Positions 2,765 to 27,226 of a DNA stretch of 64,000 nucleotides are shown in pieces. Source of the DNA: an uncultured Candidatus Rokubacteria bacterium (lineage in GTDB: Bacteria; Methylomirabilota; Methylomirabilia; Rokubacteriales; CSP1-6); contig CAVXJS010000014.1 in NCBI GenBank assembly GCA_963762145.1, positions 512,001 to 576,000 on the forward strand, read 5' to 3'. The notes under the pieces are model-generated. The model worked only from the letters and a program-made list of their open reading frames with translations. It was not told where the DNA came from and did no database searches. Every line of letters begins with the position of its first letter. Positions within the stretch are counted from its first letter, which is position 1. A program made the translations under genes and the position numbers.

Positions 2765-4270
2765 ATGCGCGCGCTCCGACGATCGATGGGGGGCGGGCTG
2801 GCGCTCGCCGCGGTGCTGTCGATCGCGGCGGGCGCGGACGCCGCGCCGGACGGGCTGATCCGCGTGGGCTCGAAGTCCTTCACCGAGAGCTACATCCTGG
2901 CCGAGATCGCGGCCCAGGTCATCGAACAGGTCGGCGAGGCGCGGGTCGAGCGTCGGGTGGGCCTGGGCGGGACCGGCCTCACCTACCGGGCCCTCGAGTC
3001 CGGCGCGATCGACCTCTATCCCGAATACACCGGCACGCTCGCGCGTGTCCTCCTGAAGGACGCCGCGCTCGAGACGCCGGAGGCCATCCGAGGGCGCCTC
3101 GTGCCAATCGGGCTCACGGTCAGCGGCTCCCTCGGCTTCGCCAACACCTACGCGCTCGCGGTCCGCGCCGACATGGCGGAGCGACTCGGGCTCCGGACCA
3201 TCGGCGACCTGGCCCGGCACCCGGAGCTGCGCGCCGCATTCAGCTCGGGCTTTCTCGAGCGCGATGACGGCTGGCCCGGTCTGCGGACGCGCTACGGCCT
3301 GACCCTGGCCCGGACGGAGGTCATGGAGCACGCGCTGACGTATCGCGCGATCGCGAGCGGCCAGGTGGACGTCATGGACGTCTTCTCCACCGACGGGCAG
3401 CTCGAGCGGTTGAAGCTGCGGCTCCTCGACGACGACCGGCGCTTCTTCCCGGACTACTCCGCGGTGCTCCTGGCCCGCCGCGAGATGATCGAGCGCTACC
3501 CGCGCACCTGGGCGCGGCTGCGCGAGGCGCTCGAGGGTCGCCTCGACGGCGCGACGATGGCGCGCCTGAACGCGATGGCGGACCTGGACGGCCGGCGCGT
3601 TTCCGAGGTGGCCGCCGCGTTCCTGGGCGCCGCCGCCCGCGACGGCGCGGGGGGCCACCGGGAGATGCTGGCCGAGCTCGCCGCGCTCACGCTGGATCAT
3701 CTGGTCCTCGTGCTGATCTCGGTGGGCGTGGCGATCGTGCTCGGCATCCCGATGGGCATCGTGGCCGCGCGCCATCGGCGGACCGGCCAGCTCGAGCTCT
3801 CCGCGATCGCGATGCTGCAGACCGTGCCCGCCCTGGCGCTGCTGATGTTCATGATCCCGCTCTTCGGCATCGGCAAGGGCCCCGCGCTCGTCGCGCTCTC
3901 GCTCTACGCGCTGCTGCCGATCGCGCGGAACACCTACGCGGGGCTGATCGCGATCGACCGCACCCTGCTCGAGATCGCGGGCGTGCTGCGGCTCGCCCCC
4001 CTGCGCCGCCTGCTCCGGATCGAGCTCCCGCTCGCCGCGATCCCGATCATGGCCGGCATCAAGACCGCCGCGGTGACCACGGTGGGCACCGCCACCCTGG
4101 CCGCGTTCATCGGCGGCGGCGGCTACGGCGCCCTGATCGTCCGCGGACTGGCGCTGGACGACACCGCCACGATCCTGGCCGGCGCCGCGCCCGCGGCGGC
4201 GATGGCCCTCGTCTTCCACGCGCTCTTCGAGCTGGCCGACCGCGCGGTGGTGCCGCGTGGTTTGCGGTGA
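2765..4270 (+). CDS. Fused substrate-binding + permease subunit of a betaine/quaternary-amine ABC importer
   Basis: N-terminal OpuAC-like domain (GSKSFTE, YPEYTGT, NTYALAV). C-terminal permease (QTVPALAL, YALLPIARNTY, IELPLA, GGGGYG). Confidence 0.92.
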   Translation: MRALRRSMGGGLALAAVLSIAAGADAAPDGLIRVGSKSFTESYILAEIAAQVIEQVGEARVERRVGLGGTGLTYRALESGAIDLYPEYTGTLARVLLKDAALETPEAIRGRLVPIGLTVSGSLGFANTYALAVRADMAERLGLRTIGDLARHPELRAAFSSGFLERDDGWPGLRTRYGLTLARTEVMEHALTYRAIASGQVDVMDVFSTDGQLERLKLRLLDDDRRFFPDYSAVLLARREMIERYPRTWARLREALEGRLDGATMARLNAMADLDGRRVSEVAAAFLGAAARDGAGGHREMLAELAALTLDHLVLVLISVGVAIVLGIPMGIVAARHRRTGQLELSAIAMLQTVPALALLMFMIPLFGIGKGPALVALSLYALLPIARNTYAGLIAIDRTLLEIAGVLRLAPLRRLLRIELPLAAIPIMAGIKTAAVTTVGTATLAAFIGGGGYGALIVRGLALDDTATILAGAAPAAAMALVFHALFELADRAVVPRGLR

Positions 4271-21011: not shown

Positions 21012-21067
21012 CTACTCATGAGGGTGGGCCCGCGCCCGAGCCCAAGCCCAACTCCGAGGAGAATGCG

Positions 21068-21481
21068 ATGCCAGCCTACGAGGTGATCACCGGGCCGAGC
21101 CCCTGGCCGGCCCGCTACACGTTCTCGCCCGCGGTCCGCGCGGGCAACCTGCTCTTCATCTCGGGCATGACCGCGGGGGACGAGAGCGGCAAGATCGTCG
21201 GGCCCGGCGACATCGCGGCCCAGACGCGCTACATCTTCGAGAAGTTCGCCAGGCTCCTGGCCGCGACAGGCGGCGGCTTCGAGCACATCGTGCAGACCAC
21301 CGAGTACGTCACCACCACCGAGAACTACGGCAAGACCGCCGATGTCCGCCGCGAGTTCTTCAAGGGCCGCTTCCCGACCGCGACCGGCGTCATCGTGGCC
21401 GGCCTCCTGCGCGAGGGCGCGCTCATCGAGATCTCGGCCATCGCCGTCCTGCCCGATCCCAAGGGAGAACCTCATGCCTGA
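21068..21481 (+). CDS. RidA/YjgF family protein
   Basis: FSPAVRAGNLLFISG, GDIAAQ, LIEISAIAV. SD GAGGAG before ATG 21068. Visible only as the tail of the 17954 ORF in the track. Confidence 0.88.
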   Translation: MPAYEVITGPSPWPARYTFSPAVRAGNLLFISGMTAGDESGKIVGPGDIAAQTRYIFEKFARLLAATGGGFEHIVQTTEYVTTTENYGKTADVRREFFKGRFPTATGVIVAGLLREGALIEISAIAVLPDPKGEPHA

Positions 21482-22196
21482 TACGCGCCTGATCGACCAG
21501 GCCTTCCAGCGCATCATGCGGAGCCTCGTGGACACCGGCCGGGCGCCCCACCACGCGGAGCTGGCGCGCGCCCTCGGCCTGGCCGCCGAGGAGGGCCGGA
21601 GCCTGCTGCGCGACGTCATGCAGGCGTACCCGATCGGCTGGCTCCATCCCGAGACCGACTACATCGCCTCGTTCCCGCCGCTCAACAACCTGCCCACCCA
21701 GTACCGGATCACGGTGCGCGGTGAGCAGCGCTGGTTCGCGCAGTGCGGGTTCGAGGCCACCTCCGCGACGTGGCTGTTCCCCGGCGAGACCGTCCGGGTG
21801 GACGCGCCGTGCCTCGACTGCGGCGATCCGGTCACGGTGGAGATGCGCGGCGGGCGCATCACCTGGGTGGATCCGCCCGAGGTCGTCGGCCATCTCGCCT
21901 TCGGGTTCGGCCCGTCGCGCGGCCGACCGTACTACCTCTGAACCGGCATGAACCTCTTCCGGTCGGAAGAGCACGCGCGCCGCTGGAGCCAGTTCGAGCC
22001 GCGGTCCGAGCAAGGCTTCATCAGCCTGGCCGAGCTGGCCGGGTTCTTCGGCACCGAGAGCCGCCGGCACATGCTGGACGGCGACTATCTCTCGTCGTGG
22101 TATCCCCGCCGCGCCGCCGAGCGGCGCGCGTACCTCGAGCGGATCGGCAAGACCTCGCCGTTCTGGATGGGAACGCCGGACCCGCCGGCGTCCTGA
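21474..22196 (+). CDS. MerB (organomercurial lyase)-like protein, probable selenoprotein (Sec156 encoded by TGA 21939-21941)
   Basis: The ORFs ending at 21941 and starting at 21948 are in the same frame, separated by TGA ACC GGC. N-terminal HTH-like region, WFAQCGFE (cf. MerB YAWCALD), CLDC, then U-TGMNLFRSEEH (cf. MerB C..VHFFAS). SECIS-like hairpin follows the TGA. Confidence 0.82.
21942..21971 (+). promoter_or_regulatory. Bacterial SECIS-like element
   Basis: Perfect 7-bp stem CTCTTCC/GGAAGAG (21954-21971) with apical loop GGTC starting 19 nt after the UGA. Confidence 0.78.
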
Positions 22197-22230
22197 TGAG
22201 GTAGACTCTGGGGCCGAAAGGAGCCCATCC

Positions 22231-23193
22231 ATGAAAGCGATCCGCGTCTCCGAGTACGGTGGTCCGGCGGTCCTGAAGCTCGAGGAGATTCCCGCGCCCC
22301 AGCCGGGACCCAACCAGGTGCTGGTGCGCAACCACGCCGTCGGCATCAATCCGGTGGACACCTACCTGCGGAGCAACACGGACAACCGCGGACCCAAGCT
22401 GCCCTACACCCCGGGCAGCGACGCGGCGGGCGTCGTCGACGCGGTGGGCTCGGGCGTGACCGCGGTGAAGAAGGGCGACCGCGTCTACGTGGGCGGGACG
22501 GCCACCGGCGCGTACGCCGAGTACGCGGTGTGCGAGCAGACCCAGGTGCACCCGCTCGCCGCCAACGCCACCTTCGCGCAGGGCGCGGCCGTGAACGTGC
22601 CCTACGCGACCGCATACCACGCGCTCTTCAACCGCGCCCACGGCGAGGCGGGCGAGACGGTGCTGGTGCACGGCGCGAGCGGCGGCGTCGGGATCGGCGC
22701 GGTGCAGCTCGCGCGGGCGCGCGGCCTCACCGTCATCGGGACCGCGAGCACCGAGAAGGGGCGGCGCCTGGTCGCCGAGCAGGGCGCGCACCACGTGCTC
22801 GACCACAGCGCGCCGGGCTATCTCGAGGAGTGCGCCAAGCTGACCGGCGGGCGCGGTCCCGACATCATCATGGAGATGCTGGCGAACGTGAATCTCCAGA
22901 AGGATCTGGGCGCCATCGCGCTGCGGGGGCGCATCGTGGTCATCGGCAATCGCGGCAACACCGAGATCAACGCGCGCATCGCCATGAACAAGGACGCGGC
23001 GATCCTCGGCATGGCCCTCAACCACGCCACCCCGGCCCAGCTCGCGGGCATCCACGCCGCGCTCGTGGAGGGGCTCCGCAACGGCTCGCTCCGCCCGGTC
23101 ATCGCCCAGGAGCTGCCGCTCGCGCAGGCCGCGCGCAGCCACGAGGTGGTGATGGAAGCCGGCCACCACGGCAAGGTCGTCCTCGTCCCCTGA
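22231..23193 (+). CDS. qor: NADPH:quinone reductase (zeta-crystallin/Qor)
   Basis: GINPVDTY, LPYTPGSD, PYATAYHAL, VHGASGGVG, GKVVL. Confidence 0.9.
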   Translation: MKAIRVSEYGGPAVLKLEEIPAPQPGPNQVLVRNHAVGINPVDTYLRSNTDNRGPKLPYTPGSDAAGVVDAVGSGVTAVKKGDRVYVGGTATGAYAEYAVCEQTQVHPLAANATFAQGAAVNVPYATAYHALFNRAHGEAGETVLVHGASGGVGIGAVQLARARGLTVIGTASTEKGRRLVAEQGAHHVLDHSAPGYLEECAKLTGGRGPDIIMEMLANVNLQKDLGAIALRGRIVVIGNRGNTEINARIAMNKDAAILGMALNHATPAQLAGIHAALVEGLRNGSLRPVIAQELPLAQAARSHEVVMEAGHHGKVVLVP

Positions 23194-23340: not shown

Positions 23341-24105
23341 TCAGAACGAGGCGGTGACGGGGCCGAGGGGGGTGAAGGTGGCCGCGATGCGGTCGCCGCG
23401 GGCGATGGGGTACTGGCGGGTGAACGAGCCCGACATCACCTTCATGCCGGCTTCGAGCGCCAGGCCGAGCTCGGCGAGCTTGTTGGCGAGCCACGCGATG
23501 GAAGCCGCGGGCGTGCCCAGCACCTCGGCGCCGGTGGCCCGGTCGGGGGCGCCCCCGTTCACGGACAGCTCCAGCGCCACCGTGGCGAGGTCGAAGCCCG
23601 CGGGCACGGGCACCGCCGCGCCGGTCACGTAGGCGCGCTGCTGGGCGTTGTCGGCCAGGCTCACGTTCAGGTCGGCCGCGAAGTCGCCGCGCTTCTCGAT
23701 GATCTCGAAGGCCGGCGCCATCGCGCTCAGCGCGGCCTGCGCCTGGTCGTCGGTGACGCCGGGCCCGCGCAGGGTGCGGCCCACCGTGAGGCAGAGCTCG
23801 TTCTCGAAGCCGGGATTGATCAGGTCCGCGAACTGAAAGCGCGTGCCGCTCGGCCGCTCGCCGCTGGCGAGCAGGAAGCCCAGTACCGGCTCGTGCACCT
23901 TCTGCTGGATCTGCATCGCCTTCGAGGTGAGGCCGACCTTCCAGCCGGCCTGCCGCTCGCCCGCGGCCACGTGGCGCGCGAGCACGCCGAGCTGCACCCG
24001 ATAGGCCTCCTCGCGGCTCAGCCGGCTCGTCCACTCGGCAGGCGGCGCGGTCCGGCAGCGGGCCGCGGTCCAGAACGCGGCGATGGCTTGCGCGGTGGTG
24101 CTCAC
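23341..24105 (-). CDS. 2-keto-4-pentenoate hydratase / FAH-family protein (MhpD-like)
   Basis: EAYRVQ, GWKVGLTSKAMQ, EPVLGFL, LADNA, WLANKL, MSGSFT. GTG 24105 overlaps the upstream stop. Confidence 0.9.
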   Translation of the reverse strand: MSTTAQAIAAFWTAARCRTAPPAEWTSRLSREEAYRVQLGVLARHVAAGERQAGWKVGLTSKAMQIQQKVHEPVLGFLLASGERPSGTRFQFADLINPGFENELCLTVGRTLRGPGVTDDQAQAALSAMAPAFEIIEKRGDFAADLNVSLADNAQQRAYVTGAAVPVPAGFDLATVALELSVNGGAPDRATGAEVLGTPAASIAWLANKLAELGLALEAGMKVMSGSFTRQYPIARGDRIAATFTPLGPVTASF

Positions 24106-26477
24106 GGCTCTCCCCGGCGGACCTGGCACACGTAGGACCGCAGCGCGACCGTCCCGCTGATCGGATCGGCGGAGTCGGGATCGATCAGGTTGTTGTAGTT
24201 GGCGCTGGCCGCGCCCTCCGCCGGGTAGCCCCCGAGCTGGAGGGGCTCGCACGGCTGCCACCAGCCGAACTGCGCGCAGACCACGTCGGGCGCGAGGCTC
24301 GGATTGAGGCGCGCCCGCGCCCGCATGGTGGCGCGCGGCGTCTCGATCAGCACCCAGTCGTCGCCCGCGATGCCGCGGGCCAGGGCCGCGTCCGGATGCA
24401 GCTCGACCTGCGGGTCGGGGCTGTGCCGCCGCAGGCGCGCCAGGCTCCGGTGCTGGCTGTGGCAGAACTGCACGACCTTGGCGGTGGTGAGCTGCAGCGG
24501 GAACCGGGCGGCGAGGTCGGGGCGGCTGACCGGGCTCGCGGCGGGCTCGACGAACTCGGGCAGCGGCGCCTGGCCGCACTGCTGGAGCTGCGCGGAGAAG
24601 ATCTCCACGCGGCGGCTCGGCGTGGCGAAGCCGACCGGGCCGTTGGCGCCGCGGGCCGCGTAGCGCTTGAAGCGCGGCTCGACGGTGGTGCGCACGCCGC
24701 CTGGGTTGTCGCGGAGCTGCTCGAGAGTGACACCGGTCGGCTCGAGCATGAAGCGGTGGCCCGCGTCCTCGTCGCCCTCCCAGAAGCGCTCGCCCAGGCC
24801 CAGGCGGCGGGCCAGCTCGCAGACGATCCAGATGTCCGAGCGCGCCTCGCCCCTCGGCTCCACCACCGCAGGCCGGAGCTGCACGTGCTGCTCGCCGTCC
24901 TGCGTGGGCCCGAAGCCCACCCGCAGCCCCTCGCGCTCCCACGCGGTGGACACCGGCAGCACCACGTCGGCGAGCGCGGCGGTGGGCGTCAGGAAGAGAT
25001 CGGCGTAGACGAGGAAGTCGAGGCTCGTGAGCGCGGCGCGCGCGGTGGCCGCGCCCGGCGCGGAGAGCAGCAGGTTGGTGCCGAAGCCGACCATCCCGCG
25101 CACCGGGTAGGGCGCGCCGTGGAGCATCGCGCGATAGGTGTCGGCCGAGACGGGCCACCCCTGGCGGGCGGGCCCGAGGGGCCGCCCGGCCAGGCCGAGC
25201 GCCTTCGCGCGCTGCCGCTCCGGAAGCAGCGCGAGCGGGGCCAGGTCGTTGACCGCCGGGCGGCTCGGCCGCACGTTGCCGCCGGGCGCGTCGAAGCACC
25301 CGGTGAGCGCGTAGAGGAGCGAGAGCGCGCGCACGGTCTGGCTCGCGTTGGTGTGCTGCTCGAGCCCCGTCCAGTGGAAGTAGGAGACCGGGCGCCGCTC
25401 CCACAGCAGGCGCGCGGTCTCGACGATCTGGGCCGCCGGGACGCCGGTGATCTGCTCCACGCGCTCGGGCGAGTACTCGCGGCAGAGCGCGGCGTAGGTC
25501 TCGAATGCGGGCACGCACGTGACGGGGCCGGAGCGCGTCATGCACCGCACGGTCCCGTCGAGCTGCGGGTCGCCGATCGGCTCGATGTAGTCGGCGGTGG
25601 CCGGATCGTACGCCACCGGGCGAAGAGCGGCGCGATCCCACGCAACATAGTGTCCGGGGCTGCCCACCGCGGAGAGATCGGCCGCGCTGAGGAGGCGGCC
25701 GTTGTCGGCGCGCACCAGGAACGCTCCGTTCGACCAGTCGCGGATGAAGTCGCGGTCGTACCAGCCCTCCGCGATCATGACCGCGGCCAGCCCCAGCGCG
25801 AGCGCGCCGTCGGTCCCGGGGCGCACGCGCAGCCACTGATCCGCGCGGGCCGCCGCCCCCGCGTGGCGCGGGTCCACCACGATCAGCGCCGCCCCGCGCG
25901 CCGTCATCTCGGAGACGGCGGTGGCCTGGGCCAGATAGGTGGCCGACGGGTTGTGCCCCCAGAGCAGGAGACAGCCGGTGCGATCGAAGTCGGGGGTGCC
26001 GATGTCCACCCCGAACGTGAACGGGGTGACGAAGTCCCGGTGCCAGGCGCACAGCTCCTCGCCCCAGACCAGGTTCGGGCTGCCGAAGGCGCGAATCAGC
26101 CGGAGGATCCAGAGGAAGCCGTCGGAGACCGCGGTTCCCGCCGGGGTCGTGCAGCCGAAGGCCACGCCCTCCGGCCCGTGCCGCCGCGCGACCTCGCGCA
26201 TCTTCGCCGCGGTCCAATCGAGCGCGGCGTCCCAGCTGATGCGCTCCCAGCCCGCGTCCGGGTCCGACTTGGGCCGCGTGCGGCGCATCGGGTAGAGCAG
26301 CCGGTCCTCCGCGTAGACCAGCTCCGGGGCGGCGCGGCCCTTCACGCAGAGGCTGGCGCCGGTGGGGTGCGAGGGATCAGGCTCGACCGCGACGAGCCGC
26401 CCGTCCTCCACCACCGAGACGCAGCCGCACCGGGAGCGGCAGAGCGCGCAGAAGCCCTGGATCCGCCGGGTGGCCAT
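24102..26477 (-). CDS. Mo/W-bisPGD oxidoreductase (acetylene-hydratase-like clade), cytoplasmic
   Basis: CALCRSRC...LCVKG, DRLLYPMRRT, WERISWDAAL, putative Cys ligand in ELCAWH, ADVVLP. ATG 26477 overlaps the SDR stop. Confidence 0.9.
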   Translation of the reverse strand: MATRRIQGFCALCRSRCGCVSVVEDGRLVAVEPDPSHPTGASLCVKGRAAPELVYAEDRLLYPMRRTRPKSDPDAGWERISWDAALDWTAAKMREVARRHGPEGVAFGCTTPAGTAVSDGFLWILRLIRAFGSPNLVWGEELCAWHRDFVTPFTFGVDIGTPDFDRTGCLLLWGHNPSATYLAQATAVSEMTARGAALIVVDPRHAGAAARADQWLRVRPGTDGALALGLAAVMIAEGWYDRDFIRDWSNGAFLVRADNGRLLSAADLSAVGSPGHYVAWDRAALRPVAYDPATADYIEPIGDPQLDGTVRCMTRSGPVTCVPAFETYAALCREYSPERVEQITGVPAAQIVETARLLWERRPVSYFHWTGLEQHTNASQTVRALSLLYALTGCFDAPGGNVRPSRPAVNDLAPLALLPERQRAKALGLAGRPLGPARQGWPVSADTYRAMLHGAPYPVRGMVGFGTNLLLSAPGAATARAALTSLDFLVYADLFLTPTAALADVVLPVSTAWEREGLRVGFGPTQDGEQHVQLRPAVVEPRGEARSDIWIVCELARRLGLGERFWEGDEDAGHRFMLEPTGVTLEQLRDNPGGVRTTVEPRFKRYAARGANGPVGFATPSRRVEIFSAQLQQCGQAPLPEFVEPAASPVSRPDLAARFPLQLTTAKVVQFCHSQHRSLARLRRHSPDPQVELHPDAALARGIAGDDWVLIETPRATMRARARLNPSLAPDVVCAQFGWWQPCEPLQLGGYPAEGAASANYNNLIDPDSADPISGTVALRSYVCQVRRGEP

Positions 26478-27226
26478 CAGACGGCGAGAAAGCCCCCGTC
26501 CACCACCAGCTCGGTCCCGGAGATGTACGAGGCCTCGTCGGAGGCCAGAAACAGGACCGCGTGGGCCACCTCCTCGATCCGGCCCTCGCGCCTCAGGGGG
26601 ACGGCGTCGAGCAGCGGCTTCCGCCAGACCGGGTCGGCCGAGCCCTTGGAGGTCCGCATCGGGGGAAGAAAGCCCGGGTGCACCGAGTTCACCCGGATGC
26701 CGTCCTTCCCGTACTGCACCGCGCCCGACTTGGTCATGATGCGCACCGCGCCCTTGGAGGCGTTGTAGCCCATGTGGATCTTGTCCTGCCCCACGAACCC
26801 GGAGATCGACGAGATGTTCACGATGGACCCGCCGCCGCTCTTCCGCATGACCGGGACCGCGTGCTTCATGCCGAGGAAGACGCCCTTGGCGTTGATGTTC
26901 ATCAGGCGGTCCCACGCGGCGGTGCTCTCGTAGTCGGGATCGTGCGTGCCGCTGATCCCCGCGTTGTTGACGAGGATGTCGAGCCGCCCGTACGCGGCCA
27001 CGGTGGCCTTGATCGCGGCTTCCCAGTCCGCCTCGCTCGCGACGTCGAGTTTCACGAACTGCGCGCGGCCGCCCGCGCCGGTGATGTTCGCCGCGACCTT
27101 CTGCCCGTCGGCGTCCACGTCCGCGACGATGACGCTCGCGCCCTCGCGCGCGAAGATCACCGCCTCGCTCTCGCCCATTCCATGCGCGGCGCCGGTGACG
27201 ATGGCCACTTTGTCCTTGAGTCTCAT
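26477..27226 (-). CDS. Short-chain dehydrogenase/reductase
   Basis: TGAAHGMG, NNAG, YNASK, NSVHPG. Confidence 0.94.
   Translation of the reverse strand: MRLKDKVAIVTGAAHGMGESEAVIFAREGASVIVADVDADGQKVAANITGAGGRAQFVKLDVASEADWEAAIKATVAAYGRLDILVNNAGISGTHDPDYESTAAWDRLMNINAKGVFLGMKHAVPVMRKSGGGSIVNISSISGFVGQDKIHMGYNASKGAVRIMTKSGAVQYGKDGIRVNSVHPGFLPPMRTSKGSADPVWRKPLLDAVPLRREGRIEEVAHAVLFLASDEASYISGTELVVDGGFLAV

Follow-up and report, generated by a model that had tools for sequence, protein, structure and literature searches.

Gene layout and the MerB family match

The window analysed here is a 64,000-nucleotide (nt) stretch of the genome of an uncultured Candidatus Rokubacteria bacterium (assembly GCA_963762145.1, contig CAVXJS010000014.1, positions 512,001 to 576,000). 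Its forward strand holds a 240-amino-acid gene of the MerB family (21474..22196, from ATG 21474 to the terminal TGA at 22194-22196). According to the window sequence and its translation, the frame is interrupted once, by a TGA at 21939..21941 (+; codon 156), which we propose to be a selenocysteine (Sec) codon. Open reading frame (ORF) calling with translation table 11 splits the gene in two, a piece that ends at 21941 and an 82-residue ORF at 21948..22196, both in one frame. The internal TGA is followed by ACC GGC ATG, and the ATG at 21948, which opens the shorter ORF, is preceded by no purine-rich Shine-Dalgarno stretch. The start region of the complete gene (21460..21481, +) includes a GGGAGA Shine-Dalgarno-like stretch, ATG 21474 and the overlap ATGCCTGA, by which this ATG is joined to the stop codon (TGA 21479-21481) of an upstream RidA-family gene (ORF 21050-21478, Pfam Ribonuc_L-PSP, 77.8 bits). 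The motifs AQCGFE (Cys91) and CLDC (residues 113-116) were found in the joined protein; the Cys91-Gly-Phe-Glu94 codons occupy 21744..21755 (+), and 21948..22193 (+) encodes the last 82 residues, wrongly called as an ORF of their own. A first-pass annotation, made from the letters alone, had described two in-frame ORFs divided by TGA ACC GGC, a downstream ATG lacking a Shine-Dalgarno sequence and a 240-residue read-through product with Cys91, CLDC and UGA at codon 156. These statements were borne out by the window sequence, its translation and the ORF list, and the prediction that standard pipelines would call two fragments agreed with the ORF list and with the database stubs described below. 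TGA is also an ordinary stop codon in this genome, as both the upstream RidA gene and the MerB-like gene terminate in it. The latter ends in a tandem TGATGA (22194-22199), the first TGA being the true terminator; the 3' side of this terminator carries the Shine-Dalgarno sequence of a quinone oxidoreductase gene (22231-23193) and no hairpin resembling a selenocysteine insertion sequence (SECIS).

The joined protein matched Pfam PF03243 (MerB) with 58.5 bits (cut-off 27). The match continued across the TGA and covered residues 73-187 and profile positions 4-116 of 126. The N-terminal half alone reached 36.6 bits and joining added 22 bits, while the C-terminal 82-residue piece alone had no Pfam or NCBIfam match; because joining raises the MerB match, the C-terminal piece is assigned to the MerB fold. 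In the downstream frame the residues are kept despite variation at synonymous sites, e.g., at A168 and R169, and by this pattern the frame is under purifying selection. The whole-genome PF03243 search returned this gene (51.2 bits, one TGA inside the match) as the sole PF03243 gene of the assembly.

A sequence search of the PDB ranked MerB2 (5c17) best, with an E-value of 4.6e-7 over residues 22-198, and MerB was found at about 3e-3. An AlphaFold2 model built with 36 aligned homologues had a mean predicted local distance difference test score (pLDDT) of 95 and a predicted template modelling score (pTM) of 0.90. When the model was compared with the PDB by Foldseek, all 11 matches at E <= 0.001 were MerB or MerB2 (E 5e-11 for MerB; template modelling score 0.58 by query length and 0.69 by target length), and matches beyond these two had E > 0.4. 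The joined protein is thus a member of the MerB superfamily (PF03243) with a MerB fold. HMMER alignments to MerB (3f2g) and MerB2 (5c17) placed Cys91 at Cys96, Glu94 at Asp99 (Ser in MerB2) and codon 156 at Cys159, and by these alignments codon 156 is the equivalent of the second catalytic cysteine of MerB. Among the 36 homologues, comprising Sec and Cys forms, C91 and position 156 were invariant and E94 was kept in at least 90%, with Asp in the one noted exception. The first-pass proposal that Sec replaces the second catalytic Cys, that Glu replaces Asp99 and that the two metal ligands are spaced by 65 residues here against 63 in MerB was in agreement with the alignments.

Conservation of the TGA and of the downstream hairpin

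Homologous loci were scanned in one genome per species, which returned 80 loci; three loci from further scans completed a set of 83. A TGA with an open frame beyond it was found in all 77 alignable loci of the 80, and the next stop followed 60-90 codons later, or about 217 codons later in a group of Acidimicrobiia. Two loci (L077 and L081) could not be aligned through a frameshift elsewhere in the gene, yet both have the TGA and the hairpin; another (L084) was cut by a contig end. No TAA, TAG, Trp, Arg or any other sense codon was seen at the site among the loci. The residue before the proposed Sec was L, I, M, R, S or A in the 77 loci and never C, the window gene having Leu. The gene was present in 60 of 201 genomes sampled from the phylum among them 12 of 13 other genomes of the genus. 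At least one TGA lay somewhere inside each of the 61 match rows from the 201 genomes that span residue 156; in one genome (G032) the gene appeared as two overlapping pieces of frame, apparently the result of a frameshift. TGA was also read in a soil DNA run of independent origin (X5, its records ending at 21941). Both outcomes bear on observations that the first-pass annotation had named as refuting, namely Trp, Arg, TAA or TAG in homologues and TGC or TGG in raw reads; what was found instead was TGA in 77/77 loci and in the soil run, and Cys in distant forms.

These distant forms came from a phmmer search of 1.84 billion representative sequences, which yielded 531 relatives, mostly fragments ending at residue 155 or starting at 159. 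Seven full-length relatives spanning the site (P0127, P0137, P0144, P0219, P0222, P0260 and P0266; 22-46% identity) all have Cys at the aligned column. A search of 301 Chloroflexi genomes with P0127 gave two matches, both with TGA, and a metagenome scan with P0144 gave one locus, another Sec form. The databases contain hundreds of records of 155 or about 80 residues and many 70-100-residue fragments that begin at residue 159, and the 155-residue stubs are named 'organomercurial lyase', 'alkylmercury lyase' or 'hypothetical protein' (NCBI, JGI). Among 5.8 billion clustered proteins, only six, of 132-422 residues, include the C-terminal portion, and not one of the six is a clean record of full length. 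The usual occurrence of the two halves as separate genes had been listed in the first-pass annotation as an argument against a selenoprotein; separate calls are indeed common in the databases, but they are caused by gene callers stopping at the TGA.

The hairpin lies at 21954..21971 (+), inside codons 161-166 (L-F-R-S-E-E), and consists of a 7-bp stem with the arms CTCTTCC (21954-21960) and GGAAGAG (21965-21971) and the loop GGTC (21961-21964). It starts 12 nt after the UGA, the loop being 19 nt away. The 18-mer is single-copy in the 6.26-Mb assembly, both strands counted together, and the hairpin is the minimum free energy (MFE) structure of the 47 nt at 21939-21985 (-17.9 kcal/mol). The consensus model of Zhang and Gladyshev for bacterial SECIS (bSECIS) elements, as summarised in the available part of PMC13188914, specifies a loop of 3-9 nt, a stem of 4-16 bp, a G in the first two loop positions, a distance of 16-37 nt from the UGA and an MFE of at most -7.5 kcal/mol. 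The hairpin described here, with a 4-nt loop (GGUC) that begins with GG, a 7-bp stem, a distance of 19 nt and the energy given above, falls within all of these limits. The SECIS-like character of the hairpin, its perfect pairing and its loop 19 nt past the UGA had been recognised in the first-pass annotation and were reproduced by the coordinates and by comparison with the published model. The SECIS loop of Escherichia coli fdhF also contains GGUC. The position directly 3' of the UGA, within the coding sequence, is the same as in bacterial SECIS elements; the hairpin differs from them in being unusually invariant, with nearly the same 18 nt across several phyla, whereas bSECIS elements of different genes are usually dissimilar to each other (PMC13188914, available part).

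The module of TGA, exactly 12 nt, CTCTTCC, a 4-nt loop and GGAAGAN was present in 81 of the 83 loci. The loop was GGTC in 77 of these, GGGC in three and GGGG in one, and the 18 nt varied in 14 of the 81, through U>G at loop position 3 (four loci) or through the outermost 3' stem base (ten loci). In a further locus (L115), where the module lies on the opposite strand, the 3' arm is GGAGGAG and one U-A pair has become U-G. A metagenome contig of lower GC content (L113:1299-1997) carries a Sec form whose 18-nt hairpin is identical despite different codon usage elsewhere. An RNAalifold consensus of 20 sequences recovered the hairpin with -7.55 kcal/mol. For a test of synonymous sites, the 77 rows were thinned to 52 with less than 88% pairwise nt identity, and TGA is at codon 156 in 52/52 of them. 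Codons 161-165 (Leu CTC, Phe TTC, Arg CGG, Ser TCG and Glu GAA) were single-codon in 52/52 rows (Ser in 50/50), although three of these residues are six-fold degenerate. Uniform codon use was found in none of the 57 other conserved degenerate columns, in which the mean share of the majority codon was 0.685; it was 0.50-0.83 in the six other conserved Leu, Arg or Ser columns, and the adjoining A168 and R169 vary freely, each through four or five codons. Stretches of invariant nucleotides are longest between 21948 and 21970, where the top three of the gene are found, and the conserved GAA of Glu165 pairs with TTC in the stem. The LFRSEE peptide is not kept in the Cys forms, which have LFCSED, IFVSKE, IFRSDE, LFASEA and others at this place, so that protein function alone does not account for its lack of variation in the Sec forms. 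This pattern fits an RNA-level constraint on the hairpin codons that would be confined to the Sec forms.

The family is found mainly in Methylomirabilota/Rokubacteria, and other records are labelled Acidimicrobiia, Chloroflexi/Dehalococcoidia, Nitrospinae, Tectomicrobia and Deltaproteobacteria. Contigs encoding proteins 74-94% identical to that of the window gene were also encountered in nine unexpected metagenome-assembled genomes (MAGs; L024, L030, L031, L035, L036, L040, L053, L065 and L071) labelled Acidoferrum, Nitrosotalea, Nitrosocosmicus (archaea), Dormiibacterota, Limnocylindria, Verrucomicrobiia, Burkholderiales or Deferrimicrobiaceae. The genes flanking L024, L030, L031, L035, L036 and L071 are the same as in the window, and the nine loci look like mis-binned Rokubacteria contigs rather than a true distribution. 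In ten loci of Acidimicrobiia/'Poriferisodalis' (L092, L094-L097, L099-L103) the protein has about 130 extra C-terminal residues (334-366 residues in total; at about 3445-4098 in nine of these loci and 876-1457 in L095), and this extension had no Pfam match. Divergent paralogues of the same phylum, with 41-48% identity, contain two or three TGAs inside the match (G139:C37:9548-10204, G064:C102:28601-29275 and others); these may be the Sec codon together with the final stop, or further Sec codons.

Selenocysteine machinery and competing explanations

The assembly comprises 25 contigs and 6.26 Mb, with 88% completeness and 5.4% contamination. All four genes that the first-pass annotation had proposed to look for, selA, selB, selC and selD, were detected in it above curated cut-offs. 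selA (577 bits, cut-off 268), selB (363 bits, cut-off 242) and the tRNA-Sec gene selC (69 bits, cut-off 47) are clustered within 5 kb on one strand of another contig (C9:751777-756726). selD (341 bits) is located at C11:419505-420437, and a second selD is present on the window's own contig. The selD gene on C11 has an in-frame TGA at C11:419535, followed by a 20-nt perfect palindrome GTCCTGGAGATCTCCAGGAC, and is itself a selenoprotein gene; its SECIS and the hairpin of the MerB-like gene differ in sequence and have no motif in common. Outside the phylum, selA exceeded its cut-off in all five of the carriers of the MerB-like gene that were tested. Under the proposed mechanism, the mRNA hairpin (arms CUCUUCC and GGAAGAG, loop GGUC), placed 12 nt past the UGA, would recruit SelB and its Sec-tRNA(Sec), provided through the selA, selB, selC and selD genes of this genome, and the UGA at codon 156 would be read as Sec in translation.

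Several observations weigh against a selenoprotein or lessen what the above results can carry. The assembly is incomplete (88%) and partly contaminated (5.4%), and the selA/selB/selC cluster does not lie on the window's contig. Within the phylum the co-occurrence with selA is uninformative because selA is so common there: it was found in 173/201 genomes, and by hand count in 51 of 60 carriers and 122 of 141 non-carriers. The Cys of the seven distant forms is known from public gene calls on contigs, not from fetched DNA. A closer relative, P0002, has Cys at the site and is 82% identical to the window protein; it is a 217-residue singleton from a protein-level soil assembly, lacks 24 internal residues and may be either a genuine variant with Cys or a chimera created in assembly. 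In three RNA libraries, contigs were found for both halves of the gene, and none bridges the TGA under a 31-letter rule, the best being 21882-21962 (X16, record 7); these libraries may contain DNA, and neither the coverage, as a basis for a claim of transcription, nor its gaps carry weight. The folding energy of the hairpin is unexceptional in comparison with shuffled sequences (z -1.86 for 21939-21985), and an 81-nt fold around the site did not pick the hairpin and was no better than shuffles (z -0.72), for which reason folding energy was dropped as an argument. None of the six consensus stem pairs covaried in the RNAalifold analysis of 20 sequences, nor was any two-sided compensatory change found, because the stem hardly varies; covariation was likewise dropped, all six pairs being invariant, and the synonymous-site statistics were used instead. 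An Rfam search (E up to 10) gave matches at chance level alone, none of them SECIS-like; to our knowledge Rfam holds no bacterial SECIS model. As thermodynamics is weak alone, the strong evidence for the hairpin is comparative, and its structure is deduced from the synonymous freeze, the single U-G change and the fit to the bSECIS model rather than from covariation.

The results were weighed against three other explanations of the interrupted frame. Table-11 ORF calling and the hundreds of records of 155 or about 80 residues are exactly what would be seen if the locus held two genes, a 155-residue truncated MerB-like protein ending at a true TGA stop and an 82-residue protein re-initiated at 21948, the ATG of which (Met159) is conserved in 52/52 thinned rows. 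However, Met159 is also kept in four of the seven Cys forms, where there is no stop, and in 77/77 loci the stop is TGA, never TAA or TAG, with the two pieces always in frame and 6 nt apart. In the alignments the TGA falls on the catalytic Cys159, and the MerB match runs on through this codon, the 82-residue piece has neither a Shine-Dalgarno sequence nor a family of its own, and a MerB fold deprived of the second metal ligand and the C-terminal helices would presumably be inactive, to judge from the MerB literature cited in PMC8261052 (available part). Two separate genes are therefore very unlikely. A pseudogene, or an assembly or sequencing error that turned a Cys codon (TGC or TGT) into TGA, would take a single base change (TGC>TGA), and P0002, which is otherwise 82% identical, has Cys there; but the same TGA recurs in 81 independent assemblies from several phyla and in the independent soil DNA run, purifying selection acts on the downstream frame, and P0002 is a singleton from protein-level assembly with a deletion of 24 residues, which leaves this explanation a negligible probability. 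Read-through without Sec, by a near-cognate Trp or Cys tRNA or by some other recoding programmed by the hairpin, would account for the same reading frame, as read-through can generally be promoted by a hairpin that follows a stop codon and the identity of residue 156 as Sec is deduced. It is nevertheless improbable, given the full Sec machinery in the genome, a hairpin whose loop, spacing and position of G agree with the bSECIS model, the catalytic Cys site with Cys homologues, a classic Sec/Cys signature, and selA in 5/5 carriers checked outside the phylum. On this comparative evidence, the window gene is very probably a genuine selenoprotein gene.

Possible function and relation to known systems

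The genes around the MerB-like gene in the window encode, by Pfam, an enoyl-CoA hydratase (ECH), an acyl-CoA synthetase (AMP-binding), RidA, a quinone oxidoreductase (zinc-ADH), an FAA hydrolase and a molybdopterin oxidoreductase, and the RidA gene is translationally coupled to the MerB-like gene. The molybdopterin oxidoreductase gene (Fe4S4, Molybdopterin and Molydop_binding domains; 24105-26504, -) is located 2 kb downstream. Synteny with RidA, acyl-CoA synthetase and quinone oxidoreductase was confined to 17 close relatives (L024-L039 and L071), two of which (L028 and L029) lack RidA; the remaining 63 loci lacked it, save for a weak single match to ECH or RidA in four of them. Single-linkage clustering of the flanking ORFs revealed no neighbour common across the family, and a Pfam search of the 10 immediate neighbours in the other loci gave unrelated families or none, among them CoA-transferase III, parts of ABC transporters and DinB/MST. 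The gene neighbourhood was consequently rejected as a clue to function, the context being kept solely in close relatives. The neighbours are not mer genes (MerR, MerT and MerP were not searched for), and the best MerA match in the assembly, with 392.5 bits, was below the cut-off of 454.45.

Assuming Sec insertion, the active site would be formed by Cys91, Glu94 and Sec156, the counterparts of Cys96, Asp99 and Cys159 in MerB. Cys91 and Sec156 would bind a soft metal and Glu94 would donate a proton, and by analogy with MerB the enzyme would most likely cleave a metal-carbon bond by protonolysis. An organomercurial as the substrate is made less likely by the lack of a MerA above the cut-off, by neighbours that are neither mer genes nor conserved beyond close relatives, by the absence of a second PF03243 gene from the assembly and by Glu in place of Asp99. 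Hg-Se bonds are much stronger than Hg-S bonds, and with no MerA present the discharge of Hg(II) from a Cys/Sec site would therefore be problematic. Somewhat short of an even chance, but to be taken seriously, is the alternative that this MerB-fold selenoprotein is no organomercurial lyase and instead binds or traffics a metal or metalloid (Hg, Cu, Se or As) or acts on another organometal or organometalloid or on a non-metal substrate. Besides the missing MerA and the absence of mer or SAO neighbours, it is favoured by a MerB equivalog score of 28 against a cut-off of 200, by the Glu, by the existence of structurally known variants at this position (MerB2 with Ser and the D99S mutant, according to PDB titles) and by the variable neighbours (CoA transferase, ABC-transporter parts, DinB/MST). 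Against it stands the conservation of the fold and of the Cys/acid/Cys(Sec) triad, as a protonolysis site needs, and we know of no other activity of PF03243 proteins.

Among enzymes that break Hg-C bonds only MerB has been studied well, and merB genes are counted by their Cys96/Asp99/Cys159 signature when the potential for mercury detoxification is surveyed. The furthest-reaching interpretation, which is possible but rather unlikely, is that the window gene is the founding example of unrecognised, widespread MerB-type selenoenzymes of aerobic environments that cleave carbon-metal bonds through Cys/Glu/Sec without MerA. If so, methylmercury demethylation would be one example reaction of the family, and its hosts would be Rokubacteria of soil and groundwater, sponge-associated and marine Acidimicrobiia, Nitrospinae, Tectomicrobia and Chloroflexi. 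Pipelines truncate the gene at the UGA, and such genes would therefore have been excluded from merB surveys, leaving a route of organometal turnover in soils overlooked. A second, phylogenetically separate MerB-type selenoprotein family would in itself add to the candidate organometal lyases a gene carried by 60 of the 201 sampled genomes of a major soil phylum, which is now annotated as a 155-residue fragment, and the release of the metal from a Cys/Sec chelate without MerA would be posed as a chemical question. Under the furthest-reaching interpretation, the 18-nt SECIS, almost the same in several phyla, may move together with the gene as a recoding cassette complete in itself; its near-invariance also offers a natural test case for the recognition of SECIS by SelB. 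An annotation rule of TGA, 12 nt and CTCTTCCGGTCGGAAGAG could repair hundreds of database records.

When compared with canonical MerB (PDB 3f0o and 3f0p), the joined protein has the same fold, with approximately 20-24% identity in structural alignments, and the same first Cys followed three positions on by an acidic residue, at the slightly different ligand spacing given above. MerB has Cys159, Cys160 and Asp99, in contrast to Sec, no Cys160 and Glu here; the conserved C113 is probably the counterpart of MerB Cys117, by position only. The MerB equivalog models gave 27.9 bits (NF033555, cut-off 200) and 30.7 bits (NF009710, cut-off 193). An identity as canonical MerB (EC 4.99.1.2) was rejected, since the models score below their cut-offs, two of the three catalytic residues differ and MerA is lacking. 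MerB2 of Bacillus megaterium (5c17) likewise departs from Asp at position 99, but it combines Ser with Cys as the second ligand, whereas the family described here has Glu and Sec. No model of NCBIfam release 20 claims the protein.

In the literature, SaoL was the sole MerB-type selenoprotein found, within a scope that left out supplements as well as Deng et al. 2026 and Haft & Tolstoy 2025, any of which could list the family. SaoL is also the one MerB-type entry in the available part of the 2026 catalogue of prokaryotic selenoproteins (PMC13188914), and 'MerB' is absent from the main text of PMC2398784, PMC5029168 and PMC12013277. Deng et al. 2026 (Cell Rep), as cited in the available part of PMC13188914, reported 63 selenoproteins in a Methylomirabilota MAG. 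SaoL has been described as a MerB-like organometallic lyase selenoprotein (Haft & Gwadz, bioRxiv 10.1101/2022.07.06.499078, available part). It shares with the window protein the PF03243 superfamily, a location outside the classical mer operon and Sec at the position of MerB Cys159. In contrast, SaoL has a Cys-Sec (CU) dipeptide and Asp where this protein has Leu-Sec and Glu, and the SaoL model NF040728 gave only 32.8 bits on the latter (cut-off 140). SaoL is encoded in a nine-gene SAO neighbourhood (SaoB/P/C/T/E/X and others), none of which was recognised here by Pfam, the Sao models not having been run. Its hosts are strictly anaerobic Firmicutes, spirochaetes and deltaproteobacteria, according to the available part of the same preprint, as opposed to Methylomirabilota/Rokubacteria, Acidimicrobiia and others in the present case. 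An identity as SaoL was rejected on account of the score below cut-off, the missing CU motif and the missing SAO neighbours. By these criteria, the family is distinct from both canonical MerB and SaoL, and Sec at the Cys159 position would then occur in at least two separate MerB-type families. As the first-pass annotation had cautioned, MerB-related selenoproteins had already been reported, SaoL being the matching case; the class is thus known, and the family of the window gene, with no Cys before the Sec, with Glu and with a near-invariant hairpin, appears to be a previously undescribed member of it.

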